Below are positions 1,659 to 17,522 of a stretch of 20,000 nt of DNA, in pieces; positions within the stretch are counted from its first letter, which is position 1, and every line of letters starts with the position of its first letter. The notes below the pieces were generated by a model. The model saw nothing but the letters and a program-made list of their open reading frames with translations, ran no database searches and was not told the DNA's origin. Source of the DNA: an uncultured virus (IMG/VR IMGVR_UViG_3300002460_002270) (Duplodnaviria; Heunggongvirae; Uroviricota; Caudoviricetes); the IMG/VR virus record IMGVR_UViG_3300002460_002270; one strand, written 5' to 3'. A program made the position numbers and the translations under genes.

Positions 1659-2039
1659 ATGTTTGAGGTCAAGATTGTCAAAAAACCGTGGGGTGAAGAG
1701 CATTGGCTTGAACTCAATGAAAGATATTGCTACAAGCGGATCTACATCAATGCTGGTACTCGAACGAGCTTTCAATATCACGAACAAAAGCTTGAGACGA
1801 ATTTTATCATCTCTGGTGAAGCAGATGTCTGGCTTGAGGATGATGAAGGAGTTGTTCAGAAGATAAAGATGTGTGCTGGTGAGTATTTCACAGTAAAGCC
1901 TCCTCGAAAGCATCGTGTTATTGCCCTGACAGATCTAGTTCTTATGGAAGTTTCAACGCCCGAAGTGGACGACGTTATTCGGATTCAAGATGATGCTACT
2001 AGACCTGACGGTAGGATTGAGTCGGAGCATGGAGTATAG
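1659..2039 (+). CDS. Stand-alone cupin, mannose-6-phosphate isomerase (type II C-terminal)-like sugar isomerase
   Basis: VKKPWGEE, TSFQYHEQKLET, PPRKHRV, EVSTPEVDDVIRIQDD: cupin metal motif (H..E / H) of PMI-like proteins. Confidence 0.85.
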   Translation: MFEVKIVKKPWGEEHWLELNERYCYKRIYINAGTRTSFQYHEQKLETNFIISGEADVWLEDDEGVVQKIKMCAGEYFTVKPPRKHRVIALTDLVLMEVSTPEVDDVIRIQDDATRPDGRIESEHGV

Positions 2040-3618
2040 GGTTTGCATTCTATCAGCAGGCCGCGGCATGCGCCTGGGTCCGTTAACTGATGACATCAAC
2101 AAGTCTCTTTTGCCGATAGACGGTAGGGCTATAATCTCGCACATTATTGAGAAGTTTCCTAGGGATGTTGAGATTGTGGTGGCTGTTGGTTACCAGGCAG
2201 ACAAGGTCTGCGAGTATCTGAGCCATGCCCATGATGATCGAAAGATAGTCTGTGTTGAGGTGCCAGATTGGGATGCTCCGGGAGCAGGTCCTGGTGCGTC
2301 ATTGCTTCGTTGCAAGGGACATCTACCTGGCAGCTTTGTCATCTATGCAGCTGACACGTTGCTGATGGAGCACGTCCCACCGCCCGATAGGAATTGGTTG
2401 GGAGTTGCTCCTGTGACTGAGACCGAGCGGTTCTGTACTGTCCAGATTAAGGGTGAGCTCATCTCAAAGCTCACAGATAAACGGAAATGTGACAACCGGC
2501 TCGCCTTCGTCGGTGTTGCAGGGATCAGGGACTATGAAGAGTTCTGGGNAGCCTTGGAGGCCGATGATACACTAATCGAAAATGAGAAGCAGTTGTCGAA
2601 CGGTTTGGCGACGATGATTCTCCATCGGCTCCATCCTGAGGAATTTACTTGGTTCGATACTGGGACGATCGAGAGCTTTGAGGCGACAAGGAAGCACTTT
2701 GAGGGGGATGACAATTTCGTCTTTGACAAGGTGAATGAGTTCACCTACCAGATCAATGGGTTGTTGGTGAAGTACTTTGGCGACCCGAATGTCGTCAAGA
2801 ACAGGTTGGCACGTGCTGAGAAACTCGAAGACCTGTGTCCGACGATCAGGAAGTCATCCCAGCGGTTCTACTCGTACGAGATGGTCAAGGGGAAGACAGT
2901 CTATGAGTGTCTGACACCGAAGTTGACGTCTGACTTTATCACGTGGGCCATGAACAACCTATGGATTGAGGTAGAGGGTATCAACAAGGATGCCTATAAC
3001 AAGTCGTGTGACAAGTTCTACAGGACGAAGACCCTTGAGAGGGTCGCAATGTTCTACAAGAAGTACCCAGAGCTTAGGGAATTGCCTGCCAACGTCAATG
3101 GTGAGCCGCTCCCTCCACTTTCTTCAGTCTTTGAGGACGTCAATTGGTCTGGGTTGTCATTCGGTTTGCCGACAAACTTCCACGGAGACCTCCAGTTCGA
3201 CAACGTCCTCAGGTCAGGTTGGCTTTCGACGGGTCGGGATGCATTCAAACTGATCGATTGGCGTCAGGATTTCGATGGTAGGACCGATGTCGGTGACATG
3301 AGGTATGATCTGGCTAAGCTCTATGGTGGCCTGACGATCCCTTACAACCTGATTAAGCAGAACAAGTTCAAGTATGATGAGTCAGCTGACGGTGTCACGT
3401 ATGACATTGATACGACTCTAACTTTGAATGAGTCACAGGTTGTTCTCAGGAAGTACATCAACGATCTATTCGGTGCTGTGATTATGCAGGATGTTGAGAC
3501 AATCAGGGCTTTGATTTTCTTGAACATGGCTCCGCTGCACGCTTATCCTTTTGACAAGCTCCTCTACTACATGGGATGGAGTTACTTGCATCGGGCGGTA
3601 CACAGAGATGATCTGTAA
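2029..3618 (+). CDS. Bifunctional nucleotidyltransferase plus APH/choline-kinase-like sugar kinase (BcbE/BcbG-like fusion)
   Basis: N-terminal ILSAGRGMRL..NKSLLPI and WFDTGT (NTP transferase). C-terminal FHGDLQFDNVL, LIDWRQDF and YDLAKL (APH-type kinase motifs). Start placed at ATG 2029 (MEYRVCIL) rather than 1990. One ambiguous base (N) at 2549. Confidence 0.85.
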   Translation: MEYRVCILSAGRGMRLGPLTDDINKSLLPIDGRAIISHIIEKFPRDVEIVVAVGYQADKVCEYLSHAHDDRKIVCVEVPDWDAPGAGPGASLLRCKGHLPGSFVIYAADTLLMEHVPPPDRNWLGVAPVTETERFCTVQIKGELISKLTDKRKCDNRLAFVGVAGIRDYEEFWXALEADDTLIENEKQLSNGLATMILHRLHPEEFTWFDTGTIESFEATRKHFEGDDNFVFDKVNEFTYQINGLLVKYFGDPNVVKNRLARAEKLEDLCPTIRKSSQRFYSYEMVKGKTVYECLTPKLTSDFITWAMNNLWIEVEGINKDAYNKSCDKFYRTKTLERVAMFYKKYPELRELPANVNGEPLPPLSSVFEDVNWSGLSFGLPTNFHGDLQFDNVLRSGWLSTGRDAFKLIDWRQDFDGRTDVGDMRYDLAKLYGGLTIPYNLIKQNKFKYDESADGVTYDIDTTLTLNESQVVLRKYINDLFGAVIMQDVETIRALIFLNMAPLHAYPFDKLLYYMGWSYLHRAVHRDDL

Positions 3619-4429
3619 GGACACCAAAGTCTGTATTTCGATCTCGTCTAATCCAGGAAGCACAGGCGCTCTGATCCACAATTCTTTGTATGAACGTTAT
3701 GGGTTAGACTACATTTATGTTCCTCGAGCATTGGCTGATCATCAGTTAAATGATAGCATTACAGCAGTTCGTGCCCTTGGGATAGTTGGTTGCAGTGTTT
3801 CCATGCCCTTCAAGCGACGTGTGATATCGTTGCTTGATCAGACAGACGGACATGCTAGCTTTGTTCCTACTGTTAACACCATCAAGCACCTGGACGGACG
3901 TCTTATTGGTTATAACACTGATGTTGATGGCGTGATGATGGCATTAGGTGACCTTGTTTCATCGTATGAATGTCATATGACGCCCACTGTCGTCGGCTCG
4001 GGTGCGACTGCGTATTCAACCGTCTATGCTCTATCAATAATGGGATTCAAGGAGATGTATCTCTGGAATAGGACAGAATCTAAAGCTGATGCTTTAGCAG
4101 GATTTGTTAGCGCTTTGGGAATTAGAGCGTGTGTTTTGAAGGACCTCAATGCTTTGAGCGCCGATGTTCTTATAAATGCGTCAGCACTCGGTTTGGATGA
4201 TGAGTCTTTTCCGATGTCAGATGATGTCCTTGGGATGTATAGATTTGTCTTTGACGTTGTCAACAGTCCGAAACAGACAGACTTAATTATTCGAGCAGAA
4301 GCATTGGGTTTAAAGAACTCTACGGGTAAACAGATGGCATTGTATCAGGCCTTAAAGCAGTTTGAGATATACACAGACATCACACTTGACATTCCGCGTG
4401 AGATAGAGTTCTTAAGGTGTATCATATGA
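3608..4429 (+). CDS. sdhL: Shikimate dehydrogenase-like oxidoreductase, SdhL subfamily
   Basis: MICKDTKVCISIS..HNSLYERYGLDYIY..VRALGIVGCSVSMPFK..VNTI..GYNTD, then VVGSGATA and NRT. The N-terminus resembles H. influenzae SdhL (HI0607, recalled as MINKDTQLCMSLS...VRALGIRGCAVSMPFK) more than AroE. Start placed at ATG 3608. Confidence 0.85.
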   Translation: MICKDTKVCISISSNPGSTGALIHNSLYERYGLDYIYVPRALADHQLNDSITAVRALGIVGCSVSMPFKRRVISLLDQTDGHASFVPTVNTIKHLDGRLIGYNTDVDGVMMALGDLVSSYECHMTPTVVGSGATAYSTVYALSIMGFKEMYLWNRTESKADALAGFVSALGIRACVLKDLNALSADVLINASALGLDDESFPMSDDVLGMYRFVFDVVNSPKQTDLIIRAEALGLKNSTGKQMALYQALKQFEIYTDITLDIPREIEFLRCII

Positions 4430-5436
4430 AGCTATTCATTGGACCCATGAGCAAGAATGTTGTCGATGCAGCCATTGAGTTTGAACAGGAGAATAGACCA
4501 TCTGATCTAGCTGGGTTTATTCCATCACGAAGGCAGGTTGAGGCTAGCATTTTGGGGTGTGGGTACGTCTGTAACTGGACGACTGAAAAGTTTATCGATT
4601 ATGTTGTGTCTCATGATACCAGTCTTCGTATCATACGTGATCATGGGGGTCCAGGACAGGGGTCTGTAGAGGATGATGGGTTAGACTCATTGACATGTGA
4701 TGTTAAATCTGGTATAAAGTGTATCCATATTGATCCATGGAAGATGTATAGGACGATCGAGGGGGCTGCGATGTGCACGATCAGTCTCTTGAATCACTGT
4801 CATCTGATTGATTCAACATGCATGTTTGAGATTGGGACTGAGGAGGGTATTAGAAGGTACACTCCAGAAGAGCTGGATGAGTTTATCACGCTTGTTGAGG
4901 CAGGTGCTGATCCGTCTGTATTCGATTGCATCATCTATGCTGTGGTCCAGTCTGGAACGAATGTCAATGGTATGGCCAACACAGGTCATTTTGATGCGAA
5001 TAGGTCGGCAGAGATGGCTGCTGTCTGTCATAAGCACGGGCTGGAGGCTAAGGAACACAATTCTGATTACCTAACATCAGAAGAGCTTAAAGCCCGTGCT
5101 GACTGTGGTGTTGATGCATTCAACATCGCACCTGAGTTTGGAGTGTTAGAGACAGAGATTTTGATTGACATGCTTCGTAGCGCTGGACTATATGATGAAC
5201 TGAATGAATTTATTCGTACATGCATCAAGTCAGGAAAGTGGGAGCGCTGGGCATCATTCAACAGAGATTTCATATCTGATGAGCTTGGGTACTTAACAAC
5301 GCTATGCGGTCATTATAACTTTGAGACTGACTCGTACCGAAATGCCCGACGCCATCTCATTAAGGACGGTCTTGACTTCGATACGATCGTCAAGGATGCA
5401 ATCAAACAACGGATTGGGGAGATTGTTAAGGGATGA
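4426..5436 (+). CDS. GatZ/KbaZ-like TIM-barrel protein (putative ketose-phosphate epimerase)
   Basis: FIGPMSKNVVDA, IPSRRQVE..GYV, RDHGGPGQG, IHIDPW, EIGTEE, VVQSGT, KEHNSDY and NIAPEFG parallel the GatZ/KbaZ DHxGP, HxD, YxIGTE, VVQPG, EAHSTDY motifs. ATGA overlap at 4426. Confidence 0.78.
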   Translation: MKLFIGPMSKNVVDAAIEFEQENRPSDLAGFIPSRRQVEASILGCGYVCNWTTEKFIDYVVSHDTSLRIIRDHGGPGQGSVEDDGLDSLTCDVKSGIKCIHIDPWKMYRTIEGAAMCTISLLNHCHLIDSTCMFEIGTEEGIRRYTPEELDEFITLVEAGADPSVFDCIIYAVVQSGTNVNGMANTGHFDANRSAEMAAVCHKHGLEAKEHNSDYLTSEELKARADCGVDAFNIAPEFGVLETEILIDMLRSAGLYDELNEFIRTCIKSGKWERWASFNRDFISDELGYLTTLCGHYNFETDSYRNARRHLIKDGLDFDTIVKDAIKQRIGEIVKG

Positions 5437-5813
5437 AACGAGTTGCCTTCGATATGGATGATGTCATCTGCACACGCAGGTCAGAGGAGGGTGGCGTTCT
5501 AAAGTATCACACATGTGAGCCCATTCTGAAGGGAGTTAGGCTTGTCAATGAATGTTTTGATGCTGGCTATTATATCGTCATATTCACAGCACGTGGGATG
5601 ATAAGCTGCGAAGGAGACATTGAGAGGATCAATGCAGAGATTAGGCCTCTAACGCTGTGTCAGCTTAAACAGTGGGGTGTTAAACATCATGAGCTTGTCA
5701 TGGGAAAGTATCCGTATGATGTTTTGATCTGTGATAAGGCCGTAGATTCTCGTGACATAGCAACATTGGCTGACATCGAGAGAGCCTTAGCACGCTCTAT
5801 CTCGAATGAGTGA
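5433..5813 (+). CDS. Small capless HAD phosphatase (BcbF-like)
   Basis: AFDMDDVIC (DxD motif I), IFTARG (motif II), MGKYPYDVLICDKA (motifs III/IV). ATGA overlap. Confidence 0.85.
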   Translation: MKRVAFDMDDVICTRRSEEGGVLKYHTCEPILKGVRLVNECFDAGYYIVIFTARGMISCEGDIERINAEIRPLTLCQLKQWGVKHHELVMGKYPYDVLICDKAVDSRDIATLADIERALARSISNE

Positions 5814-6535
5814 TGTATACGATGAAACGCGTAGCTGTATGTGTGTCAGGACATCTTCGAGCACCCAAGCTTGGATATGAGTTGCTTAAGCGACATGTGA
5901 TTGATCCTAATCCAGGCTATCAATTTGACTTTTTCATCGATACGTGGTCAACTAGAGACTGGCGAAAGAATGGTGATATTGATAGGACGGGCGAATCTCT
6001 TGGACATGTGATCAGTGACGTCATATCATTTTACAAGCCGATAGTTCTAAATGTTCAGCGTGATCGTGAGTGGAACACTGATGCGTATATAAGACATGCT
6101 AGGGCTGGTGACGTTAAAAAGAAGACTAACGGCGAGCACATACTGGGAATGTATTATAAGATCATGAAATGTGATGAGATTCGCAGGAATCATGAAAATG
6201 AACTACATTTTCAATATGATTTAGTATTTAGACATAGGACTGACGTTTCATTTAAGAATGATCTAGTATTGTCAGATACGGTAATCGAACAGGCACAGGC
6301 TACGATCTTTGTTGCGAAGAATCATTCTGAGCAACAAGTCTGGTGCTCTGATGTATCAGCATTTTCTTCATCTAAGGGTATGACATTCTATTCACGTTTG
6401 TTTAAAGTGCTTCATACGCTTGTAGAAAGTCATAGCGTATTCAGGCCTGAACCATTACTATATCATCATCTCATGTCATCAAGTGAGTTTAAGTTTGATG
6501 AATTCTTTCCAGATTGGTATGTGATAAATGAATAG
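5813..6535 (+). CDS. Putative glycosyltransferase of the 'AVCxSGxxR' type
   Basis: KRVAVCVSGHLR, DFFIDTW, MYYKI, YDLVFRHRTD, SDVSAF and PEPLL: a motif set I recognise from small GT-like proteins in phage and polysaccharide loci. Start could be 5810 (GTG), 5813 or 5822. Confidence 0.6.
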   Translation: MYTMKRVAVCVSGHLRAPKLGYELLKRHVIDPNPGYQFDFFIDTWSTRDWRKNGDIDRTGESLGHVISDVISFYKPIVLNVQRDREWNTDAYIRHARAGDVKKKTNGEHILGMYYKIMKCDEIRRNHENELHFQYDLVFRHRTDVSFKNDLVLSDTVIEQAQATIFVAKNHSEQQVWCSDVSAFSSSKGMTFYSRLFKVLHTLVESHSVFRPEPLLYHHLMSSSEFKFDEFFPDWYVINE

Positions 6536-7417: not shown

Positions 7418-8170
7418 ATGACATTGAAGTTAGGGATAGCAATTTCAGTCTTTAATAAGGTTTCTGAAGTTTTAACTAACGTAAATATCATTCGTAAACA
7501 CTGGATCGACTTTAATAATGCATTTATTAGTGTATGTTGTAATGATCAGAATAGCATAAAGTTAATAGAGAAGCTTGACATTGATGAGCTGACAATGGGC
7601 GCTAATATTCCGTCAGAGCCCAAGGTAAACTTAAGGCGTAGACAATTTAACTGCATTAAAGGGTCGATGGAAGCATGTCGCGCTGACTATGTTGTCCATT
7701 GGCATGCAGATGCATTTGCGGTCAACGTAGACTCTTTGTTAAAGATTGTTGAACAGATGGAAAAAATGACGTATGTTGCTGCTTTTCGAGGCAGAGGGCT
7801 TGACTACAGAAATCCAAAGACGATATACGGCGACTGTGATGACCATTTTTTGTTTTTGTCAAGAGCTATATTGGATGCTGGCTTGCTTGATGTCGATCCT
7901 GAAGAGCATGTGCGAACGTGTAACGTAGAGAGTTTTCTTAGCTTACAGCTAGCAAAACATCGCGACAGAGTCTGGCATTATTCAACAATGCGTCAGAACA
8001 TTGTTGGAACAGCCCTTAACGATCCATTCTACGATGACGGGATTCAGCATCGAGCGATGAATCCGTATAATATCGATCATGAACGAGGATTTATCCATGC
8101 TCAAACGCGTGAGCTTCTTAGAGAAAAATTATTGATGTATGATGTGCCACAGGAACTGATCAGTCTGTGA
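7418..8170 (+). CDS. Putative GT-A fold glycosyltransferase, divergent
   Basis: N-terminal LGIAISVFNK (GT2-like first strand) and DYVVHWHADAF (degenerate DxD). Operon context supports the call. Confidence 0.5.
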   Translation: MTLKLGIAISVFNKVSEVLTNVNIIRKHWIDFNNAFISVCCNDQNSIKLIEKLDIDELTMGANIPSEPKVNLRRRQFNCIKGSMEACRADYVVHWHADAFAVNVDSLLKIVEQMEKMTYVAAFRGRGLDYRNPKTIYGDCDDHFLFLSRAILDAGLLDVDPEEHVRTCNVESFLSLQLAKHRDRVWHYSTMRQNIVGTALNDPFYDDGIQHRAMNPYNIDHERGFIHAQTRELLREKLLMYDVPQELISL

Positions 8171-9177
8171 AGAAGTTCATCGTCACTACATCAATTAATA
8201 GCCCCACTAAGGCTATTGAGAAGTTTGATGCGATGGAAGACTGGCATCTGATTGTGGTCGGTGACCTGAAGACTCCGACTGACTACAAACTCAAGCGGGG
8301 GACATATGTGCCCCCCCGCCAACAGAGCACCCTGGGTTTCAATTGCGTTGAGCAGATTCCATGGAGTGTAATCCAGCGTCGCAACATCGGTTACCTGCTT
8401 GCTCTCCGTGAGGGTGCAGACATCATTGCGACTGTGGATGATGATAATATCCCGCTTCCAAACTGGGGACGTGACATTGAATTTCCGATGCGTGTAGAGC
8501 GACCCTGGTATAAATCTGACCTTGTCGTTGACCCGCTTTACATTCATGAGATCGATCTGAGGGATCGAGCCTATCCAGGTCTGAAGCTTTGGCATCGTGG
8601 ATTTCCTGTGCAGTTGCTTGAAGAGCGTTGGCAGCATGATTTCGTCTCTGGTGGACATAGTGATATTGATGTTGTTGCTGATTTGTGGAATGGTGATCCT
8701 GATGTCGATGCCGTGTGTCGGATCGCTCACGGCCCATTCAATCTTATTTTTGGTGATCGCGAATCGATCATGGAGTCATTTGCTCCCTATAACACCCAGA
8801 ATACATTCTTCTCTCGTCGGGTCGCATCCTGCATGTGCCTGCCCTATGATATCGGTCGGATGGATGACATATGGGCGAGCTACATGACGCAACGTGTAAT
8901 GCGGGAGCTAGATAGTAGAGTGCTTTTCAGAGGTCCGAGCGTGTTTCAGGACAGGAACATTCACGACCTCTCAAATGACCTTGAGAAGGAGTTGATTGGT
9001 TACAGGCATACGATTACATTCCTCCAGAGGCTCAACTCGATTGAGGTAAGGAAGGAAGTATCGATCTTGCAGATGTATGCTGATGTTGTCTGCGGGATTT
9101 ACGGTCTACCATTCATCTCTGAAAAGATGCATAGATTTCAGCGTACCTGGATTGATGATGTAGCGAGGCTCATATGA
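8167..9177 (+). CDS. STELLO/DUF288-like (GT75/RGP-related) glycosyltransferase or mutase
   Basis: FIVTTSINSPT, WHLIVVGDLKTP, RRNIGYLLA..GADIIATVDDDN, RGFP, GDPDVDA, NTQNT and RMDDIWASY are STELLO-type motifs. GTGA overlap. Confidence 0.8.
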   Translation: MKKFIVTTSINSPTKAIEKFDAMEDWHLIVVGDLKTPTDYKLKRGTYVPPRQQSTLGFNCVEQIPWSVIQRRNIGYLLALREGADIIATVDDDNIPLPNWGRDIEFPMRVERPWYKSDLVVDPLYIHEIDLRDRAYPGLKLWHRGFPVQLLEERWQHDFVSGGHSDIDVVADLWNGDPDVDAVCRIAHGPFNLIFGDRESIMESFAPYNTQNTFFSRRVASCMCLPYDIGRMDDIWASYMTQRVMRELDSRVLFRGPSVFQDRNIHDLSNDLEKELIGYRHTITFLQRLNSIEVRKEVSILQMYADVVCGIYGLPFISEKMHRFQRTWIDDVARLI

Positions 9178-10172
9178 AAATCTTAGTGACGGGCGCCGCG
9201 GGCTTCGTCGGGCGCCACATGACAAAGAAGTTGTGTGACCGAGGCGACGACGTTGTCTGTGTCGATAACATGGTGTCTGAGTCTTCGCTCCATCCGAATC
9301 TGTGGATGGATCACCTCAAGCCAACAAAACCGGTCAGGTTCCTCAATGTTGACTGCAGGGCATTTTTTAATGAGAGTTCTGAACAATTCGACATGATTAT
9401 CCATCTAGCAGCTGTCGTAGGCGGCCGTTTAACAATTGAGAATCAACCACTCTCAGTTGCTGAAGACCTCGCGATTGATGCGATGATGTTCAACTGGGCA
9501 GTCAAGACAAATCAGAAGAAGGTCATCTTTCTCAGTTCATCTGCAGCGTACCCGATCCAACATCAGACACGGCAGAGTCATCGTCTCCTCAGTGAGGACC
9601 TGATCGATCTGTCATCAGACGTCATCGGAAAGCCTGATTTGACGTACGGTTGGGCCAAGCTGACTGGTGAGTATCTGGCAAAGCTCGCTTTCGAACGGAA
9701 TGGGTTGCAATCGGTTTGTTTCCGTCCCTTCTCGGGTTACGGAGAGGACCAGCATCTGTCATATCCGTACCCTTCATTGGTTCGAAAAGTCATGAAGAGC
9801 CAGGGGAAGAAGCCCATTGAAGTGTGGGGATCAGGCGATCAGGTCAGGGATTTCATCTACATCGATGATTGCATCGATGCGATCCTTCACATTGCACCCC
9901 AGGTCAATGATGGCCGTGCTGTGAACCTGGGAACGGGTAACCCAATGACATTTGTTGATCTGATTAAGCAGACGCACACCCTATTATGGGAATACGGTGA
10001 GCCAAAGATCACTTGCCTGACCGATAAGCCTGAGGGTGTGTTCTACCGAGCAGCCGACATCCTGCTGATGAAGTCATATGGGTATACACCCACGACGACG
10101 CTTGAGCAGGGACTTAAGAAGACATTAATCGCAAACGGCCTGCGAAAGGAAGACTGTGGGTGTTGGTTATGA
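9174..10172 (+). CDS. NAD-dependent nucleotide-sugar epimerase/dehydratase (extended SDR, GDP-mannose 3,5-epimerase-like)
   Basis: ILVTGAAGFVG, HLAAVVGG, SSSAAYP, YGWAK (YxxxK), VWGSGDQVRDFIYIDD. Confidence 0.92.
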   Translation: MKILVTGAAGFVGRHMTKKLCDRGDDVVCVDNMVSESSLHPNLWMDHLKPTKPVRFLNVDCRAFFNESSEQFDMIIHLAAVVGGRLTIENQPLSVAEDLAIDAMMFNWAVKTNQKKVIFLSSSAAYPIQHQTRQSHRLLSEDLIDLSSDVIGKPDLTYGWAKLTGEYLAKLAFERNGLQSVCFRPFSGYGEDQHLSYPYPSLVRKVMKSQGKKPIEVWGSGDQVRDFIYIDDCIDAILHIAPQVNDGRAVNLGTGNPMTFVDLIKQTHTLLWEYGEPKITCLTDKPEGVFYRAADILLMKSYGYTPTTTLEQGLKKTLIANGLRKEDCGCWL

Positions 10173-11682: not shown

Positions 11683-12740
11683 AAATAGCGTTTTTGATGG
11701 ATAAAGCCCAAACGTTTCAGGCGCTAGCAGCTGTGCTGTTTGAGGCCTCACTCCGTGGGCACGATTGTGTTGTCTACTCTACGTGTAAGCGTCCTGAGCT
11801 TCAGTGCATCGACGGCTTTGAGAATGTGGTGTGGCGCCAGTTTGACGATCGACAGGGTGTCAGAGCTTCATTTTTAAGTGAACGAAAAAGACATGATGCG
11901 GTTCTGGGCATCAACCTGTTTAATAGTATTTGGAGCTCTATCTATGAGGGTGCACCAGCAAATACATATGCTGTTGAGTATTGCTGGAATGAGATATATA
12001 ACTGTCGCAAAATTGTTAGCGATGCAACGCTCTTTGCAAACTCTGACTGGAGCTTGCAGGCTATTCGTCGTTTGAGTGGCTACGATAACGTCATGTCTAT
12101 TGGTAGTCCATGGTTTGATCTAATCAGCACGTTTAAAAGCATTGACAATTCTGAATATATCGTTTTCATGGCACCACATAATAGTTTTTATAGCAGGTAT
12201 TCTAACTTTAAGCATGTTGTAGAACAATTTCTTAAATATCTTGACATGTATTGTCATGAGTCTGGTCTACAGCTCATCCTTAAGACGCGTGAGAAGTATA
12301 CGGTAGATCACGCCGAGGGAGCGAAGTTTCAAGCAGTGCTTTCAGATGAAAATCCGTTTGATCATTTGATGCTTTATGCACATGCAGCATGTGTTGTGAA
12401 CTTTTGTTCATCGGCTATTAATGAGCTTGCATTCCTTGATGTGCCATCAGTGTGTGTGTTTCCTGAGCTGCATCGCGTGCTGCACCAAGGAGAGCGTCCG
12501 CAGCCTGGAATTGAGCTAATAAATGAGCGGTACTACGCAGGTCCAGCTGTTGATGGTGTGCATTGTTCAGCAGTTTTGTCGGATGGGTTTTCGTTTGAGT
12601 CTGTATCAGATAGCATAGAGACAGTGCTGTCATCAAAGAAGGATTGGTCGTCGTACCAGGCGATGCATTTTCCAGGTGACCATAGTAGCGCACGAAAGAA
12701 TGTCATGGATGTGATTGAAGATGGATCATGCACACAATGA
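11679..12740 (+). CDS. Putative GT-B fold transferase (candidate nonulosonate/ulosonate transferase)
   Basis: Two-domain pattern with SIGSPWFD linker, LILKTR and VVNFCSSAINELAFLDVPSV, typical of GT-B C-terminal S(S/T)xxxE.....P motifs in CMP-sugar/CDP-polyol transferases. Substrate inferred from context only. Confidence 0.55.
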   Translation: MKIAFLMDKAQTFQALAAVLFEASLRGHDCVVYSTCKRPELQCIDGFENVVWRQFDDRQGVRASFLSERKRHDAVLGINLFNSIWSSIYEGAPANTYAVEYCWNEIYNCRKIVSDATLFANSDWSLQAIRRLSGYDNVMSIGSPWFDLISTFKSIDNSEYIVFMAPHNSFYSRYSNFKHVVEQFLKYLDMYCHESGLQLILKTREKYTVDHAEGAKFQAVLSDENPFDHLMLYAHAACVVNFCSSAINELAFLDVPSVCVFPELHRVLHQGERPQPGIELINERYYAGPAVDGVHCSAVLSDGFSFESVSDSIETVLSSKKDWSSYQAMHFPGDHSSARKNVMDVIEDGSCTQ

Positions 12741-13746
12741 ATTGCAGCTTAGGACGAATGAGCTATTAAACTGGCTATTGCATTCTAGGTCAAATCAGTT
12801 GTTCTGTGAGCCTCGATACGTTCAAGACATGCTTGTTGCTAATGTTAGGGCATCTAATGCTGCGCTACCAGTGCTCGCGCTGGAGGAGTCGCAGTTAAGC
12901 TGTGCAGACATACAGGTCATGGGACTTGATACGTCTGGCATAAGATGCGAGTATGCCAATGCGTTATCTGACCTTCAACAGGTTGTTGAATCCATACGTG
13001 AGCTTGTCTGTGATTTTATAGTTGTGGGTAGCCTAGCTACAGCAGACTATGTCATGGGTTGGAGCGATCTTGATATAATAGTGATTATCAAAGATAATGC
13101 TTTGGTGTCATTGTCTAGCTTTCTAAAGCTTCGAAATAGTTGTCTTCTTATAGAAAATGAGATAATTCCACGCGTTGATAAGCTGCAACATCATGGTGTG
13201 CAGTGCATGCTAGAGTCTGATCTTAAGATGTATCCTGACATATTCTATCCTCATGAGCTATTCATAGACGGAGCGTCACTTCTTCATGAAAAGAATGTCA
13301 TGAGGTTTATGGTTCGTGACTCATCTCAGGAGCAGGTGATGCGACTAAAGAGCATTCATGACGTCTTCAAGGATGCAGCTATTGACGGCGCGTTAATGCA
13401 TCATGGACTGCGCGGAGTGTTCCTGAAAGAAAGGTATGTGAATGCCGATGATAACATGTATCAGTTTAAGTATATGTTGTCTGTCATCATGTTGTTACCC
13501 ACATTATGGATGAATGCACGTGGCATGAACTGTAGAAAGGGTGATTCATTTGAGCTTGTTAGGCCATATATCACGCCTGAAACATGGAAGATAGTCGAAC
13601 AGGCTTCAGAAGTTAGACGTATATGGAAAGAGTTTCCAGTAATGTCAAACGAGATACCCAAGTGGGTTCAGGATGTCGTGCCAAACGATTATCTTGAACG
13701 TGCATTTTGTTTTGTTGATGAGTTATGGAATAGACTGTATGATTGA
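12721..13746 (+). CDS. Pol-beta superfamily nucleotidyltransferase domain protein
   Basis: IVVGSLATADYVMGWSDLDIIVII (hGS...SDxDh), followed by a probably helical C-terminal region. Start at ATG 12721 (or TTG 12715). Confidence 0.75.
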   Translation: MDHAHNELQLRTNELLNWLLHSRSNQLFCEPRYVQDMLVANVRASNAALPVLALEESQLSCADIQVMGLDTSGIRCEYANALSDLQQVVESIRELVCDFIVVGSLATADYVMGWSDLDIIVIIKDNALVSLSSFLKLRNSCLLIENEIIPRVDKLQHHGVQCMLESDLKMYPDIFYPHELFIDGASLLHEKNVMRFMVRDSSQEQVMRLKSIHDVFKDAAIDGALMHHGLRGVFLKERYVNADDNMYQFKYMLSVIMLLPTLWMNARGMNCRKGDSFELVRPYITPETWKIVEQASEVRRIWKEFPVMSNEIPKWVQDVVPNDYLERAFCFVDELWNRLYD

Positions 13747-14599
13747 GCAGTATTATGATGCGATCAGTGAGTTCTGCAGCGACAACCCTGGGCTGCAAAT
13801 CTACATGGCGGGCTCTATCTCTCATCCAGGGATATCTGATCTAGATTTCTTAACGTTGGATGAACAGCCCGTCATAAGCGACAATATTAAGCGTTTTCTC
13901 ATGGGTGGAAATGTGATAGTGTATCCACGTGAGTTTTTTCAACGCATCAATGAGATTGAGAAGTTTGATCTGCAGCTATTACAAGGTGATGAGATTCAAG
14001 CGTTGCCAGCTATCGATGCATTTGATGAGGTTGAGATATTGGAGTGGTTACCTGAGAGAATCTGTCTGCTTGAAAGTCTAGATTTAGTGACGCATGACAC
14101 CTCAGACGAAAGAAGACGCACACTGTTATACCTAAAGTCTGTCGATAGAAGTATTTCAAACGTTGAGAAGTATACGAACTATAGTATCTCTAGGCCTAGC
14201 ATCGATGATGTGAGGCTTAATCATGAGATGCTTAACCTTAATGAGACAGTGCGTCTGTTTATCTTCGCGGCGAATGAGGCTTGGTCATGCTTTGAACGTG
14301 AGTTCAGAGGCTTGGTGGGAGACATCTGCGGAACGGTAAACATATCAAGCCACTATACTTTCAATGATAGGTTCAAATGTCTGATGCTATATCTGAAACT
14401 ATTATCGTCAGTTTCATGCGAGCTGACAGAGAAGCTAAATGAACGCGTATCATTAGATGGAAGCATAGAGTATGTTGAACCTGCGTTCCTTGACTTCGTT
14501 GTTAGACGCTGGCATCTGTTAAATGATGTTTTTCTGTGGCATAGAACGAGAGGTCATGTATCGGGTATGATTAAGTATGGGTGGTTCCTGCTGTCCTGA
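13739..14599 (+). CDS. Second Pol-beta superfamily nucleotidyltransferase domain protein
   Basis: IYMAGSISHPGISDLDFL near the N-terminus. Start placed at ATG 13739 (8-nt overlap with the upstream gene). Confidence 0.72.
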   Translation: MIEQYYDAISEFCSDNPGLQIYMAGSISHPGISDLDFLTLDEQPVISDNIKRFLMGGNVIVYPREFFQRINEIEKFDLQLLQGDEIQALPAIDAFDEVEILEWLPERICLLESLDLVTHDTSDERRRTLLYLKSVDRSISNVEKYTNYSISRPSIDDVRLNHEMLNLNETVRLFIFAANEAWSCFEREFRGLVGDICGTVNISSHYTFNDRFKCLMLYLKLLSSVSCELTEKLNERVSLDGSIEYVEPAFLDFVVRRWHLLNDVFLWHRTRGHVSGMIKYGWFLLS

Positions 14600-15725
14600 A
14601 GTTCGTGTCGTACACTGCATCGATACAGAAGGGCCCATCGGTGGCGATGTTCGAAGAAATCCAGATGGGACTAGGGAATTTTTAGATAATTGGGTTGATA
14701 TATCATTAACGCTTAAAGAGTTAACGTCTGATACTTTTCGTCTTGAAAATAGTGATTCTTTTGGTGGACGTTATAAGTTTAATTGGTTCATAATGGATTT
14801 CATGGGATTTAAGACGAATCCTAAAAATCGTGTACAGAAATATAACGACACATATGATAACATCAAGTCATTGAATATTAGAGATGATTCATTTCATTGG
14901 CACTATCATCATCCTCCTGCATCTGGTGTGGGTGACCAGTGGAGCAATGATTGGGATTCATCACGTGCATGGGAGCAGATACTAGGGCACAGAATCATAC
15001 ATAGAGGTGATTTTCCCGAAGCGTTCCGTGCTGGTGGTACGATAGAGGACATTAAGTGTTCTCAATGGCTTGAAGACAACATTATGATTGACTATTCGAA
15101 CCGCTCGTTTCGAGGTTCGATGCCGACAGATGACATCTTTGACTTTAATTGGCACGGCGCTCCTACCAGCTGGGGATACTACCGCCCGCACAGTGATGAT
15201 ATCACATGCGTGGGCGACATGCGTAGGTACATCGTTAGATGTACTGACCTGAGGTCAAGGCTCTATAGCCTCTCGTACGACGATGTGTATGAAGCGTTCT
15301 GCTATGCGAAGTATACAAGAAGACCGTTGATACTGTCGTACTTTAGCCACGACCATCGCGACATGAGGGATGAGACGAGGCACGCGATAAGCCTGATCAA
15401 GCGTGCCTCGTCTAGGTCTGGTGTTCCATACAGATGGGATGATGCTAAACGAGCGCTTCAAGCATCTGCTGGGCTTAGTGAGACGAAGCTAAGTGTTTTC
15501 ACGGAAGCTGTCGGATCTAACATACGATTTCGATTCAGCGGGAAGATATTCCAGAAGGAACCATTCGTCTACGTGCTTGACAGCGAAGATGAGGTAATCA
15601 GATGTAATACATTTCACGTCGGTGGGCTGTGTTATGACGTAGGGTTACCAAGGGATACAAAAAAAGTAGGCGTTGCAGCGACCAGCGTCACAGGTGACAA
15701 GGTCGTCAGTGTGTTAGACCTGTGA
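14577..15725 (+). CDS. Hypothetical protein, polysaccharide deacetylase/CE4-like barrel
   Basis: VVHCIDTEGP, FNWFI, HWHYHHP, AFRAGG and YFSHDH resemble the DxE / HxH / FRAG / H motifs of NodB-like metallo-hydrolases. The C-terminus is beta-rich. Confidence 0.5.
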   Translation: MGGSCCPEVRVVHCIDTEGPIGGDVRRNPDGTREFLDNWVDISLTLKELTSDTFRLENSDSFGGRYKFNWFIMDFMGFKTNPKNRVQKYNDTYDNIKSLNIRDDSFHWHYHHPPASGVGDQWSNDWDSSRAWEQILGHRIIHRGDFPEAFRAGGTIEDIKCSQWLEDNIMIDYSNRSFRGSMPTDDIFDFNWHGAPTSWGYYRPHSDDITCVGDMRRYIVRCTDLRSRLYSLSYDDVYEAFCYAKYTRRPLILSYFSHDHRDMRDETRHAISLIKRASSRSGVPYRWDDAKRALQASAGLSETKLSVFTEAVGSNIRFRFSGKIFQKEPFVYVLDSEDEVIRCNTFHVGGLCYDVGLPRDTKKVGVAATSVTGDKVVSVLDL

Positions 15726-16876
15726 CAGCGATGAGTGTCATGTGTGTCATCCCTGCACGTGGGGGTAGCAAGAGATTACCTAAAAAGAACATCCGTTTCA
15801 TTGCAGGAAAACGGATGTTACAGTGGTCAATCGAGGCATGTCTAAAGAGCAAGTATGTTGATAGGATGAACCTATGGGTGTCAACAGAAGACGCGATGAT
15901 AAAGTCGCTTGCCTGCAGCCTAGGTGTGAATGTGATTGATAGACCTCAACAGCTAGCTGAAGACAGTGTCTGGACGCAGGATGTCCTCAAGCATGCCGTC
16001 AAGAACGTGTGCGGTGACGCCCTACCAGACGTTCTCGTACGGGTCCAGGCAAACTCACCCCAGATAACAGGCGCTAAGATTGATGAATGCATTGATAAGT
16101 TACTTGAGAATGAGTTGTATGAAGTGTTCACTGTGAACCAAGACGGACTGGAGGATGCAGCGATACATGTGATGCGTGGGCGCTGTGTCTATCAGGATGC
16201 CCTTAGCGTCTACAAGGGTGTTGTTGTAACTGATTATGTTGACATGCACGATCGAGATGACGAGGATAGGGTGAGAAACATGCTTGAGACGGAAGGCTTA
16301 CATCAATCGTTCATTCAAGAAGGGTTTCATCAGATAGAGCTACAGATGAAAGAGTTTCTGCGGTCACGTCATAAGCCACAATATAATCTTTGGCATTGGG
16401 CGATGTCAGTCCCTATCGTTGATGAGAGGTGGTTGAAAGTTGTTTCTACTGATCGTAGGTTTTATGATGCGCTGCTAAACCGTGAAGTAAAAAGCGTTTT
16501 AGATGTAGGATGTGGTTTCTGCATGTATTGGCCCTTTCTTAGGGCTCTCGGTGTTGAGCGCATTGTGGGCATAGACCTATTTGATATGGGCTTAGACCCT
16601 CCTCAAGAGTACTTTAAGACAGCGAAAGCATTGGTTAATGAGTTTTGTGCGCCTGAGCTGCACGCAGATGGGTTCTCGTCAGACGTGATACAACATGATG
16701 TGAACACAGACAACGCTGTTCCTATGATTAGTGACAGCAATGAGCGATTTGATGCTTCCATCTCAATGGCGACACAATGTCAGAAGCCCTGGGTCAGAAG
16801 CATCAATAATGATTCACTGGCAAGGCTGTTAGATAGGCATGTGAAGCATGATGGAACAAGGGTCATCATCGGTTAA
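15722..16876 (+). CDS. neuA: CMP-nonulosonate synthetase (cytidylyltransferase) fused to a C-terminal SAM methyltransferase domain
   Basis: CVIPARGGSKRLPKKNI, VSTED, IDRP..LA, QANSP, VDMHDRDD (CTP_transf_3). Then VLDVGCG and IVGIDL (SAM motifs) in the same frame. Start could be 15722, 15731 or 15740. Confidence 0.85.
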   Translation: MTAMSVMCVIPARGGSKRLPKKNIRFIAGKRMLQWSIEACLKSKYVDRMNLWVSTEDAMIKSLACSLGVNVIDRPQQLAEDSVWTQDVLKHAVKNVCGDALPDVLVRVQANSPQITGAKIDECIDKLLENELYEVFTVNQDGLEDAAIHVMRGRCVYQDALSVYKGVVVTDYVDMHDRDDEDRVRNMLETEGLHQSFIQEGFHQIELQMKEFLRSRHKPQYNLWHWAMSVPIVDERWLKVVSTDRRFYDALLNREVKSVLDVGCGFCMYWPFLRALGVERIVGIDLFDMGLDPPQEYFKTAKALVNEFCAPELHADGFSSDVIQHDVNTDNAVPMISDSNERFDASISMATQCQKPWVRSINNDSLARLLDRHVKHDGTRVIIG

Positions 16877-17522
16877 GCCAAAGATTAGCATGATTATCAC
16901 ATGCTATAATCTTGAGGAATATATCACGCGTGCAATATCGAGCTGTCTAAACCAGACGCTTGATGAATGTTTTTGTGAGGTTGTTGTCGTTGATGACTGC
17001 TCGACTGATGGTTCATGGAAGCAGATCCAGGGATTCGGAAGCTTGATAACGTCAGTCAGGCTTGAGACAAACGGTGGCGTTTCATGCTCTTCAAACGTGG
17101 GAATCCATCTATCAAGAGGAAAGTACATAACACGTGTTGACGGAGACGACTTTATCAACAGAAATTTTGCACATTCAATGTGTGAGGTCTTAGACTGGAA
17201 TGATGATGTAGGGTTTGTGTATTGCGATCATATCAGGGTTGACGAAGAGGGCCAGCGTCAGGTTGAGATAAACACTCTCGATAGGTTGTTAGACCATGGT
17301 GCTGGAGTTGTCTTTAGGCGTCGGTACATGGATGCATTAGGTCTGTATGATGAATCATTGCGGAATAGAGAAGACTATGACTTCATTTCTCGCTACATAA
17401 AGAATTTTGATGGCTATCATCTGAAGCTACCCTATTATCGTTACTTTAAGCGTGCGGGCAGCCTCTCAACGATGGTCGATGAACGCCTAAGGCTTAAGGA
17501 AAAGATAGATGAACGAGCATGA
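16848..17522 (+). CDS. GT2-family glycosyltransferase (SpsA-like)
   Basis: ISMIITCYN, VVVVDDCSTDGS, NGGVS..SNVG, RVDGDD, GLYDE...EDYDF. Confidence 0.92.
   Translation: MMEQGSSSVKPKISMIITCYNLEEYITRAISSCLNQTLDECFCEVVVVDDCSTDGSWKQIQGFGSLITSVRLETNGGVSCSSNVGIHLSRGKYITRVDGDDFINRNFAHSMCEVLDWNDDVGFVYCDHIRVDEEGQRQVEINTLDRLLDHGAGVVFRRRYMDALGLYDESLRNREDYDFISRYIKNFDGYHLKLPYYRYFKRAGSLSTMVDERLRLKEKIDERA

Follow-up and report, generated by a model that had tools for sequence, protein, structure and literature searches.

Five consecutive genes in a 20,000-nucleotide stretch of DNA from an uncultured virus, probably a marine phage (the stretch is referred to here as the window), form a widely conserved cassette, whose predicted function, judged from sequence and modelled folds, is probably to make a rare sugar in nucleotide-activated form, for use in glycans, from a common ketose phosphate. 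The initial annotation had proposed that the block leads to an activated ketose, polyol or cyclitol by a pathway not characterised before; as a whole that interpretation is partly supported, and no pointer to a cyclitol was found.

The ORF listing and a check of the junctions place the five genes in the same direction on the + strand at 1659–5813 and bear out the tightly overlapping run that had been described, with successive overlaps of 11, 11, 4 and 4 nt; the next gene, at 5810–6535, overlaps the end of the HAD gene by 4 nt. The family names first given to all five proteins also held. The cassette and two flanking genes are as follows.

50–781, + strand: stand-alone nucleotidyltransferase, 243 aa (PF00483), two genes upstream of the cassette
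1659–2039, + strand: small cupin, 126 aa, type II phosphomannose-isomerase (PMI)-like (PF01050 and Cupin_2)
2029–3618, + strand: bifunctional nucleotidyltransferase (NTase)-kinase; NTase about 2029–2755, APH/protein-kinase-like kinase about 2756–3618
3608–4429, + strand: shikimate dehydrogenase family protein of SdhL type, 273 aa (1npy match)
4426–5436, + strand: enzyme of class II aldolase fold, distantly resembling GatZ/KbaZ, 336 aa (AF2 structure match)
5433–5813, + strand: small capless HAD phosphatase, 126 aa, BcbF/AfhF-like
5810–6535, + strand: protein resembling DUF7796, 241 aa, immediately downstream of the cassette; may be a transferase or another partner

Conservation and surroundings of the cassette

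The gene families co-occur widely elsewhere and far above chance. Related loci with at least 2.5 kb on both sides of the NTase-kinase were searched with HMMs after removal of duplicates (n=103). In 98 of these complete loci the cupin immediately precedes the NTase-kinase, and a small HAD is present in 102, some of the HAD HMMs being derived from single sequences. The GatZ-like gene is present in 102/103, adjoining the NTase-kinase; among viral loci, those found via the GatZ-like gene have an adjacent NTase-kinase in 80/80 cases and those found via the NTase-kinase have a GatZ-like gene in 76/79, although selection of loci through one or other of these two genes inflates their co-occurrence. 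SdhL, which had been counted as a pathway member, is of the family stated and present here, but is optional, being found in 29 complete loci and missing in 74.

Natural fusions join the same domains. NTase-kinase-GatZ proteins (P0148, P0164, P0229 and P0346) score above cutoff on PF08013, P0247 has the order GatZ-NTase-kinase, and GatZ, cupin and NTase-kinase are joined in P0242 and P0241 (source label Amoebophrya sp. A120). L037 (767 aa) is a cupin-NTase-kinase fusion, and GatZ-HAD fusions are represented by P0299 and P0334, the HAD of the latter being 41% identical to that of the window. HADs of the related loci fall into at least four subtypes that differ by lineage, a pattern that resembles the filling of a single necessary step by non-orthologous replacement. 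One variant locus (L164) has the cupin, NTase-kinase and HAD, with GatZ-like and SdhL both missing, and fits the GatZ-like enzyme as an add-on that alters the sugar made.

Both flanking genes possibly belong with the cassette. The 5810–6535 protein matches phrog_13607 (E 1.4e-13), its structural neighbours in the Atlas are viral DUF7796 and ‘capsular polysaccharide biosynthesis’ clusters, a family weakly resembling DUF7796 occurs in 32/98 loci, and a stretch resembling it is fused ahead of GatZ-like in P0322. The 50–781 protein (PF00483, 39.5 bits; phrog_3980, E 2.2e-65) has relatives close to the module in 15/80 viral loci, and is 25–30% identical to a stretch that adjoins a kinase-like protein and a BcbF-type HAD in four loci. 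Elsewhere the window encodes several GT2-type glycosyltransferases, sugar methyltransferases, NeuB, a CMP-sugar synthetase and a UDP-glucose dehydrogenase.

Predicted steps and the enzymes behind them

In the route that we infer, every substrate, the order of the kinase and phosphatase steps, the choice of nucleotide and the sugar itself are predictions. The first step would be C4 epimerisation of a ketose phosphate by the GatZ-like protein, through Zn-dependent retro-aldol/aldol chemistry for which conversion of fructose-6-phosphate to tagatose-6-phosphate is the precedent. The GatZ-like structure suggested for this protein is borne out by its AF2 model (pLDDT 94.2), which over 325 aligned residues matches GatZ 2fiq at rmsd 2.4 (Z 32.6), and matches 3txv with Z 30.5; the next closest structures are other ketose C4 epimerases (Z 25–26 to tagatose 4-epimerase and UxaE), with class II aldolases further off (Z 20–23.5). 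In its family D75-H76, E138/E142 and H214 are invariant and align with the DH, GTE and AHSTDY motifs of GatZ. As described in the available text of PMC11907403, GatZ and KbaZ epimerise fructose-6-phosphate to tagatose-6-phosphate, with His88, His257 and Glu171 binding Zn and Asp87 as the catalytic residue. The residues aligned with the Zn-binding and catalytic positions of GatZ are invariant in the GatZ-like family. The window protein has no Pfam match (PF08013 included) and no NCBIfam match, and an invariant SRRQ occupies the position of GatZ TSNQ; its substrate may therefore differ from fructose-6-phosphate, for example by a second anionic group. The family is not restricted to the cassette pathway, since stand-alone close relatives (36–42% identity) occur in many marine Flavobacteriaceae/Bacteroidetes loci with NTase-kinase, cupin, SdhL and HAD all missing within 8 kb; two annotated examples adjoin succinate dehydrogenase genes.

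The cupin, which matches PF01050 MannoseP_isomer (33.5 bits, cutoff 23.6) as well as Cupin_2, would serve as the aldose-ketose isomerase, so that tagatose-6-phosphate would yield talose-6-phosphate or galactose-6-phosphate. The aldose phosphate would then pass to the NTase-kinase, whose gene is taken to start at the ATG at 2029 (the longest ORF begins at 1990) and contains a single N at 2549, where P0121, a database protein 100% identical to it, gives the residue. The kinase domain of its AF2 model (pLDDT 91.3) has the APH fold (3tyk, APH(4)-Ia, Z 14.1, 255 aligned residues), and the motifs HGDxxxxN and DWR are invariant in the family; the window domain has no Pfam match over cutoff (APH E 0.05), and homologues do pass the APH cutoff. 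Because the domain matches no specific sugar-kinase family, and a profile search against the PDB matched catalytic loops only, the sole guide to the site of phosphorylation is remote homology to AfhE, which suggests the anomeric hydroxyl and hence a 1,ω-bisphosphate.

The HAD would then take off the distal phosphate. It carries an FDMDDV (DxD) motif at its N-terminus, as read off the translation, matches phrog_1238 (E 1.1e-19), and scores 37.6 bits on TIGR01689 EcbF-BcbF, well under the cutoff of 162. A tblastn search found homologues in 364 phage records, among them the HAD adjoining the Mosigvirus NTase-kinase, which is 33% identical to that of the window. The N-terminal domain of the NTase-kinase, a sugar-phosphate nucleotidyltransferase (PF12804, 34.9 bits) with Z 25.7 to RmlA 4ecm, 23.5 to LicC and 21.5 to MurU, would join the sugar-1-phosphate to an NTP to give the NDP-sugar. 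In about a quarter of relatives, SdhL may add an NAD(P)-dependent oxidation or reduction, and it is proposed to be an optional tailoring oxidoreductase. Its top PDB match is HI0607 SdhL (1npy, E 2.4e-35), over the full length, and the 5-ketofructose reductase 7cok matches as well (E 9.4e-21); it reaches 183 bits on NCBIfam PRK12550, under the cutoff of 306, and retains the catalytic Lys (MPFK) and Asp (NTD) and a GxG motif. The product would feed the glycosyltransferases and methyltransferases encoded elsewhere in the window. The leading guess for it is a talo- or galacto-hexose; a literature search found no NDP-talose route.

Alternative products and uses

The activated ketose or polyol first envisaged is possible, yet rather unlikely; an activated aldose is favoured over it, since almost all complete loci (98/103) have a PMI-type cupin. 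A ketose product would require the kinase to act on O2 of a ketofuranose-6-phosphate, the HAD to remove the 6-phosphate from the resulting 2,6-bisphosphate, and the NTase to form, for example, NDP-tagatose; a polyol product would require SdhL to reduce the ketose phosphate to an alditol phosphate for activation by a LicC/TarI-like cytidylyltransferase. Consistent with one or the other are an NTase fold nearly as near to LicC as to sugar-1-phosphate enzymes such as RmlA, a ketose reductase (7cok) within the shikimate dehydrogenase family, and six separate loci whose upstream sequence is intact and in which no cupin was detected. A BcbF-type locus (L251) likewise has a HAD, a kinase-like protein and an NTase without an isomerase, and tblastn found neither cupin nor GatZ-like in the four BcbF-type loci fetched. 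Moreover, according to the available text of PMC13326640, AfhE acts on the ω-phosphate of a furanose; ketohexose-6-phosphates share this ring form. Against this, the isomerase, which is also retained in four-domain fusions, would have no obvious role, the polyol version needs a dehydrogenase that 74/103 loci do not have, and no characterised ketose-2-phosphate nucleotidyltransferase was found.

The same enzyme logic would fit a C5 or C7 ketose phosphate, and a pentulose-5-phosphate or sedoheptulose-7-phosphate substrate is an unlikely second alternative to the hexose route. AraD establishes retro-aldol C4 epimerisation of a pentulose-5-phosphate, which counts for a C5 skeleton; a pentose version might run from D-xylulose-5-phosphate through L-ribulose-5-phosphate and L-arabinose-5-phosphate to NDP-L-arabinofuranose. 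A heptose version would lead from sedoheptulose-7-phosphate to a D-glycero-D-galacto- or talo-heptose, as a non-orthologous counterpart of GmhA/HddA/GmhB/HddC. To this point weak matches of the NTase domain to HddC (NF049965, E 8.3e-4; 5xhw, 6jq8; structural Z 19.7), the frequent heptose-pathway labels of phrog_1238 members, with ADP-heptose epimerase among cyanophage neighbours, and a window SDR at 9174–10172 that scores on heptose_epim (1.8e-28) below cutoff. The sole characterised homologue system uses a pentose-5-phosphate (PMC13326640, available text). However, characterised GatZ-family enzymes use hexulose-6-phosphates, as far as PMC11907403 describes them, the Pfam family of the cupin is that of the hexose-phosphate isomerase PMI, and chain length is not measured by any sequence feature.

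Supply of a sugar donor for RB69-like glycosylation of phage DNA bases, in place of surface or virion glycans, concerns the use of the product and not its synthesis, and is improbable: homologous HAD and NTase-kinase pairs do adjoin thymidylate-synthase homologues in Mosigvirus and Enterococcus phage 9183, systems that arabinosylate DNA (PMC13326640, available text), but the 20-kb window has no thymidylate-synthase homologue and does encode the glycosyltransferases and other sugar enzymes named above, the same module occurs in cellular glycan loci with an O-antigen ABC transporter or acyltransferase, and an LPS-core cluster holds relatives of the HAD, kinase-like protein and NTase.

Comparison with known systems

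The link drawn earlier to BcbE/F/G sets stands at the level of homology. Of four loci around true TIGR01689 HADs, one (L251) was compared by profile, and there the HAD lies beside a 527-aa full-length NTase-kinase homologue (hhalign P 98%, E 2.6e-13), with a match to the 50–781 gene in a 245-aa ORF; in the remaining loci tblastn likewise shows a protein matching the window's kinase domain next to the HAD and a relative of the 50–781 gene as a further neighbour. The window HAD differs in scoring far below the TIGR01689 cutoff, which is exceeded in 26/401 genomes sampled, all of one order, and cupin, GatZ-like and SdhL were all unfound in the four loci by tblastn. A literature search found no functional test of these capsule and LPS-core sets, and searches brought up nothing informative on the tie to fructose-substituted capsules stated in the initial annotation.

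ManC/AlgA-type PMI/GDP-mannose pyrophosphorylases also pair a PF01050 cupin with an NTase. In the cassette these domains are split and come in the opposite order, a kinase and phosphatase stand in place of a mutase, and the GatZ-like enzyme has no counterpart in ManC/AlgA. The variant locus with only cupin, NTase-kinase and HAD could make NDP-mannose without phosphomannomutase.

The GDP-D-glycero-α-D-manno-heptose pathway uses the ketose-phosphate isomerase GmhA, the anomeric kinase HddA, the distal phosphatase GmhB and the nucleotidyltransferase HddC, and the cassette would follow the same four-step logic, with the weak HddC matches noted above. Its isomerase is a cupin rather than SIS and its kinase of APH rather than GHMP fold, neither pair being homologous; kinase and NTase form one protein, and epimerase and dehydrogenase are extra.

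Compared with GatZ/KbaZ (PF08013; 2fiq, 3txv), the GatZ-like protein has the same whole-protein fold with the Asp-His, Glu and His residues kept, and relatives fused to NTase-kinase do pass the Pfam cutoff. The window protein is about 85 residues shorter, in addition to its SRRQ motif, and its context is anabolic, whereas annotated distant PF08013 relatives lie in PTS sugar-catabolism operons.

The closest precedent is the phage AfhE/AfhF pair, for which the primary paper on UDP-D-arabinofuranose synthesis is reportedly He et al., Nat Chem Biol 2026. The cassette NTase-kinase and HAD are remote homologues of this pair: the NTase-kinase aligns with Enterococcus phage 9183 ORF047 (hhalign P 99.8%, E 8.6e-28) and, as weak homology, with that of Mosigvirus, the RB69 genus (P 94.7%, E 6.2e-8, 461 columns). 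In the available text of PMC13326640, arabinose-5-phosphate is reported as experimentally shown to pass through the 1,5-bisphosphate and 1-phosphate to UDP-arabinofuranose, AfhE being both a kinase of arabinose-5-phosphate and a UDP-arabinose pyrophosphorylase and AfhF a HAD that depends on Mg and turns Araf-1,5-P2 into Araf-1-P, with examples in HY126, RB69 (gp52:53 and gp51) and DLP3 (gp82 and gp81) that serve DNA arabinosylation. The claim that no characterised pathway exists thus needs qualifying, because the NTase-kinase and HAD half matches this scheme; for the whole five-family combination, a literature search found no paper. Both systems have an N-terminal NTase and C-terminal kinase with a small GmhB-like HAD, both place an isomerase that makes (or, in the cassette, would make) the aldose phosphate before the pair, and the order kinase, phosphatase, NTase reported for AfhE/AfhF (PMC13326640, available text) is proposed for the cassette likewise. 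They differ in that the cassette lies in a glycan island and not a DNA-modification cluster, has a cupin where the AfhE/AfhF system has a SIS-type arabinose-5-phosphate isomerase, and adds the GatZ-like and SdhL enzymes. The difference lies in the front end, in which a GatZ-like C4 epimerase and a cupin, with SdhL optional, would replace arabinose-5-phosphate isomerase.

The gene block and its surroundings

The window is a single long run of + strand genes, and the five consecutive overlapping genes described in the initial annotation are real open reading frames (ORFs), with overlaps of 11, 11, 4 and 4 nt at the four junctions.

Genes of the block (coordinates, strand, product)
1659-2039, +, cupin
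2029-3618, +, nucleotidyltransferase-kinase (NTase-kinase), 529 aa
3608-4429, +, SdhL-like protein
4426-5436, +, GatZ-like protein
5433-5813, +, HAD phosphatase, 126 aa

The sole N of the window, at 2549, falls at a position covered by a 100% identical database protein (P0121). Megablast of the entire window found no cultivated phage among phage records that matches at the DNA level. The nearest protein-atlas clusters of the GatZ-like protein and of the downstream protein are viral, with Uroviricota as the commonest phylum, an IMG/VR contig (L082) has several window genes in common at up to 74% identity, and a phage-type PD-(D/E)XK exonuclease is encoded at the window's end. The window probably derives from an uncultured tailed phage. 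The window is rich in glycosyltransferases and methyltransferases and also contains a sialic-acid-type pathway; a SIS domain is absent from every window gene in the Pfam and NCBIfam searches.

The gene at 5810-6535 directly follows the HAD gene, which it overlaps by 4 nt. Its DUF7796-like product has viral ‘capsular polysaccharide biosynthesis’ clusters as atlas neighbours and resembles Campylobacterota capsule proteins in structure, and 32 of 98 related loci carry a family with weak resemblance to DUF7796; the protein may transfer the new sugar. The nonulosonic (sialic-like) acid set at 15722-19505 includes a CMP-sugar synthetase (CTP_transf_3; 384 aa, with a long C-terminal extension), NeuB (TIGR03569, 320 bits against a cutoff of 399.65) and a short protein of the UDP-glucose/GDP-mannose dehydrogenase family (313 aa). 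Two adjoining genes at 12715-14599 (343 and 308 aa) show nothing stronger than a weak NTP_transf_2 match (E 0.0019) and are also found in contig L082, at 36% and 71% identity respectively.

Folds and motifs of the encoded proteins

Pfam detects only a nucleotidyltransferase in the 529-residue NTase-kinase. Its AlphaFold (AF2) model, built on 35 homologues (pLDDT 91.3), has two domains in one chain. The N-terminal domain, in which the nucleotidyltransferase match spans residues 13-259, resembles the sugar-phosphate nucleotidyltransferases RmlA (4ecm, Z 25.7), LicC (Z 23.5) and MurU (Z 21.5), and the C-terminal domain has an aminoglycoside-phosphotransferase (APH) fold, with 255 residues aligned to APH(4)-Ia (3tyk) at Z 14.1. 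The kinase signatures HGDxxxxN and DWR are invariant, a GxGxR motif is also present, and several homologues pass the Pfam APH cutoff. The Foldseek and VIA lists for a 541-residue model are filled by nucleotidyltransferases, with APH(4)-Ia the sole kinase match, and when a profile of 25 kinase domains was searched against the PDB, the matches were confined to the catalytic loops of unrelated protein-kinase-like proteins (best E 0.0024); these profile and structure lists neither show nor exclude a tie of the kinase to NahK, AmgK, MtnK or choline kinase.

The segment encoding the GatZ-like protein (4417-5436) has no Pfam match at E <= 0.01, does not reach the gathering score of PF08013 and has no NCBIfam match; four relatives (P0148, P0164, P0229 and P0346) score 32.5-43 bits on PF08013, above the cutoff of 26.7. 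The best match of its model (pLDDT 94.2; Foldseek E 2.5e-15) is E. coli GatZ (2fiq, Z 32.6, rmsd 2.4, 325 residues aligned), ahead of 3txv (Z 30.5), other ketose C4 epimerases, namely tagatose 4-epimerase and UxaE (Z 25-26), and class II aldolases (Z 20-23.5, about 245 residues aligned). The predicted structure, a class II aldolase TIM barrel with GatZ-specific additions, thus supports the earlier assignment of the 4426 protein as GatZ-like. In GatZ, the catalytic aspartate is D87 and the Zn ligands are H88, E171 and H257, according to a 2025 study (PMC11907403). Across 27 sequences of the GatZ-like family, D75, H76, E138/E142 and H214 never vary and, by sequence alignment rather than 3D superposition, correspond to the GatZ motifs DHLGP, GTE and AHSTDY; an invariant SRRQ occupies the position of GatZ TSNQ.

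PF01050 is the C-terminal domain of type II phosphomannose isomerases (PMI). The window cupin passes its gathering score (33.5 against 23.6 bits, covering 105 of 116 profile positions), and a relative from another locus (L020) reaches 102.5 bits. The SdhL-like protein has Haemophilus HI0607 SdhL as its top match (1npy, E 2.4e-35, residues 1-257) and scores 183 bits on NF009202 (PRK12550; cutoff 306); the catalytic Lys and Asp are kept, K69 and D105 being invariant. The family also includes 5-ketofructose reductase (7cok, E 9.4e-21), which provides a precedent for sugar ketoreduction. Viral SdhL-like genes are often short (about 214 aa, for example 8954-9598 of locus L130), with a trimmed nucleotide-binding domain in which the catalytic Lys/Asp and GxG are kept.

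The 126-residue HAD protein is capless, carries a DxD motif and matches phrog_1238 (E 1.1e-19). On TIGR01689 (EcbF-BcbF) it scores 37.6 bits, short of the cutoff of 162, and is not an equivalog; its small size, lack of a cap and DxD motif suggest that it works like an EcbF-BcbF phosphatase.

Co-occurrence and natural fusions

The GatZ-like family is large, with 2002 matches in the 90% database, 1267 representatives at 50% identity (E <= 1e-3) and 309 relatives in the species-genome collection. A single-sequence scan of viral contigs found no GatZ-like relative and an alignment-based scan did, giving 238 in IMG/VR, where the NTase-kinase has 303.

By tblastn, every one of 80 viral loci has the NTase-kinase beside the GatZ-like gene, as do 18 of 80 cellular ones, the latter from Legionellales, CPR bacteria, an archaeon, Planctomycetota, Bdellovibrionota, Pelagibacteraceae and others; in the reverse direction, the GatZ-like gene is present in 76 of 79 viral loci reached through the NTase-kinase. 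Cellular loci without the NTase-kinase are of two kinds. The first consists of many stand-alone copies in marine Flavobacteriaceae/Bacteroidetes, and the second of distant relatives, of which both with a Pfam match are PF08013 proteins in PTS sugar operons. The stand-alone copies (36-42% identity; loci L002-L016, L018, L021 and L024) match at about 8001-8950 in those of the loci that include 8 kb of upstream flank; tblastn within 8 kb of them found no NTase-kinase, cupin, SdhL or HAD, and in both annotated loci the gene adjoins succinate dehydrogenase genes.

Small genes are under-counted by tblastn: of 45 tblastn-negative loci, 29 have a cupin immediately upstream of the NTase-kinase according to a cupin HMM, and nine of the remaining 16 are cut off at the cupin end. 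Removal of duplicates left 134 unique loci of 177, which were searched with HMMs for four HAD subtypes, two of them built from single sequences. Among the 103 complete loci (at least 2.5 kb on each side of the NTase-kinase), all chosen via the GatZ-like protein or the NTase-kinase, 102 have the GatZ-like gene, 98 the cupin and 102 a small HAD within 4 kb, but only 29 (about 28%) have SdhL. The proposed co-occurrence of the five families is strongly conserved, with SdhL as an optional member. The HAD subtype differs between lineages, the pattern expected for a required dephosphorylation with a replaceable enzyme. The cassette also occurs in DPANN archaea, CPR bacteria, Pelagibacteraceae and marine phages.

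In 22 of 98 loci, the module has a C-methyltransferase-like family (Methyltransf_23 and Methyltransf_14) in its vicinity. One variant locus (L164, 2400-9608) has cupin, NTase-kinase and HAD genes without GatZ-like or SdhL genes. Its NTase-kinase, at 43% identity, is among the closest viral relatives in the NTase-kinase scan (that of L165 is closer, at 49%), and the locus further encodes a carbamoyltransferase, a separate kinase of the APH type and a 470-residue protein in which HAD_2 is fused to an NTase.

Members of the block are also found as single polypeptides, and no SdhL fusion was seen among the fusions found.

Natural fusions of block members (domain order, source)
NTase-kinase-GatZ: P0148, P0164, P0229 and P0346, about 900 aa
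GatZ-NTase-kinase: P0247
GatZ-cupin-NTase-kinase: P0242 (993 aa) and P0241 (1390 aa, source label Amoebophrya sp. A120)
Cupin-NTase-kinase: a protein of locus L037
GatZ-HAD: P0334 (HAD 41% identical to that of the window) and P0299

P0241 may represent the module in a eukaryote, or its contig may be viral or a contaminant. A further set (P0249, P0256, P0261 and P0275) includes a fusion of the GatZ-like protein to a class I/II aminotransferase (E 3e-42) and weak matches (E about 3e-4) to a Methyltransf_23-like or GFO/IDH/MocA-like oxidoreductase domain fused to it, which suggests variable tailoring.

A candidate rare-sugar route and known activation systems

The chances are judged about even that the block encodes an undescribed, very widespread route to rare NDP-sugars for phage or host glycans, in which a biosynthetic GatZ-type retro-aldol C4 epimerase is joined to a back end of the type formed by the phage enzymes AfhE and AfhF. 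In the front end, the GatZ-type epimerase and the PMI-type isomerase would lead from a common ketose phosphate to an aldose phosphate that is uncommon: fructose-6-P would give tagatose-6-P and then talose-6-P or galactose-6-P, with talose as the outcome if the cupin keeps PMI stereochemistry. In the back end, the kinase would phosphorylate the anomeric carbon of the sugar omega-phosphate, the HAD would take off the distal phosphate and the NTase would nucleotidylylate the sugar-1-P; by analogy, this half most likely works as do AfhE/AfhF and the classical heptose pathway. SdhL would add an optional redox step. The GatZ-like protein would change which sugar is made, and the variant locus without GatZ-like and SdhL genes fits such a role. 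Candidate products are NDP-D-talose, NDP-tagatofuranose and NDP-L-arabinofuranose, which marine tailed phages would place on their own or host glycans.

The scheme would work equally with a pentulose or heptulose as substrate. An activated ketose, formed via a 2,6-bisphosphate, or a polyol is a possible product, as the initial annotation had proposed, but would leave the near-universal cupin without a role. The sugar might instead serve DNA glycosylation; against this, the window has no thymidylate-synthase homologue, and glycosyltransferases, methyltransferases and the sialic-acid-type pathway abound. An analogy with CDP-2-glycerol synthesis (Gtp1-3), with the GatZ-like protein as a fructose-6-P aldolase yielding dihydroxyacetone and SdhL as the reductase, was dropped as the main reading because most loci lack SdhL and the scheme gives the cupin nothing to do. 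GDP-mannose 4,6-dehydratase occurs near the module in 50 of 98 loci, and GDP-mannose supply as the sole function was rejected because it leaves the near-universal GatZ-like protein unexplained. A cyclitol, also suggested initially, is unsupported, there being no cyclase or inositol-phosphate synthase.

If the rare NDP-sugar route is correct, it would be the first anabolic role of the GatZ/KbaZ epimerase family and a second, chemically different case of the phage NDP-sugar scheme that proceeds via anomeric phosphorylation of an omega-phosphate. Given how common the module is in IMG/VR, the sugar may be frequent on marine microbial and viral surfaces, where it may affect phage-host recognition, and the enzymes could provide one-pot conversion of fructose-6-P to rare NDP-sugars for glycoengineering.

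Vibrio cores with wav genes probably contain fructose, a point on which passages of two papers are silent, and literature searches gave nothing useful on K4 and BcbEFG and nothing relevant on NDP-talose or talose phosphates. BcbF-type sets, named in the initial annotation, are also relatives of the block. Of 401 genomes sampled in one order, 26 encode a true TIGR01689 HAD, and in all four fetched loci tblastn detected, next to the HAD, both a homologue of the kinase domain and a gene related to that at 50-781 of the window; in the annotated example, an LPS-core cluster (L251), the kinase-like neighbour is a 527-residue full-length NTase-kinase homologue (P 98%).

AfhE of phage HY126 is reported to combine arabinose-5-P kinase and UDP-arabinose pyrophosphorylase activities, and AfhF to be a HAD that depends on Mg and turns Araf-1,5-bisphosphate into Araf-1-P (PMC13326640, citing He et al. 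2026); the same paper, on arabinosylated phage DNA, places the RB69 equivalents, gp52:53 and gp51, beside an arabinose-5-P isomerase. A phage of the RB69 genus, Mosigvirus, has the layout isomerase, 561-residue protein and phrog_1238 HAD. The window HAD is 33% identical to the Mosigvirus HAD that lies beside its NTase-kinase, and hhalign aligned the window NTase-kinase profile with the 561-residue protein over 461 columns and both domains (P 94.7%, E 6.2e-8), which points to a remote relationship between the two proteins; tblastn of P0121 gave no Mosigvirus match at E <= 1e-3. A stronger alignment (P 99.8%) is to an Enterococcus phage protein encoded between a HAD and a thymidylate synthase homologue.

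The block and the AfhE system thus have in common an N-terminal NTase with a C-terminal protein-kinase-like domain and a neighbouring small HAD. They differ in that the AfhE system has a SIS-type arabinose-5-P isomerase, whereas the window has a cupin and a GatZ-like protein, so that two front-end enzymes, GatZ-type and PMI-type, would act here where RB69 has one. No description of GatZ-like, cupin and NTase-kinase together was found in the literature covered, which takes in few subscription journals. The initial view that no characterised pathway has this combination holds, within that literature, for the whole and not for its activation half, which corresponds to the known AfhE/AfhF scheme; no description exists there of the front end or of the product.
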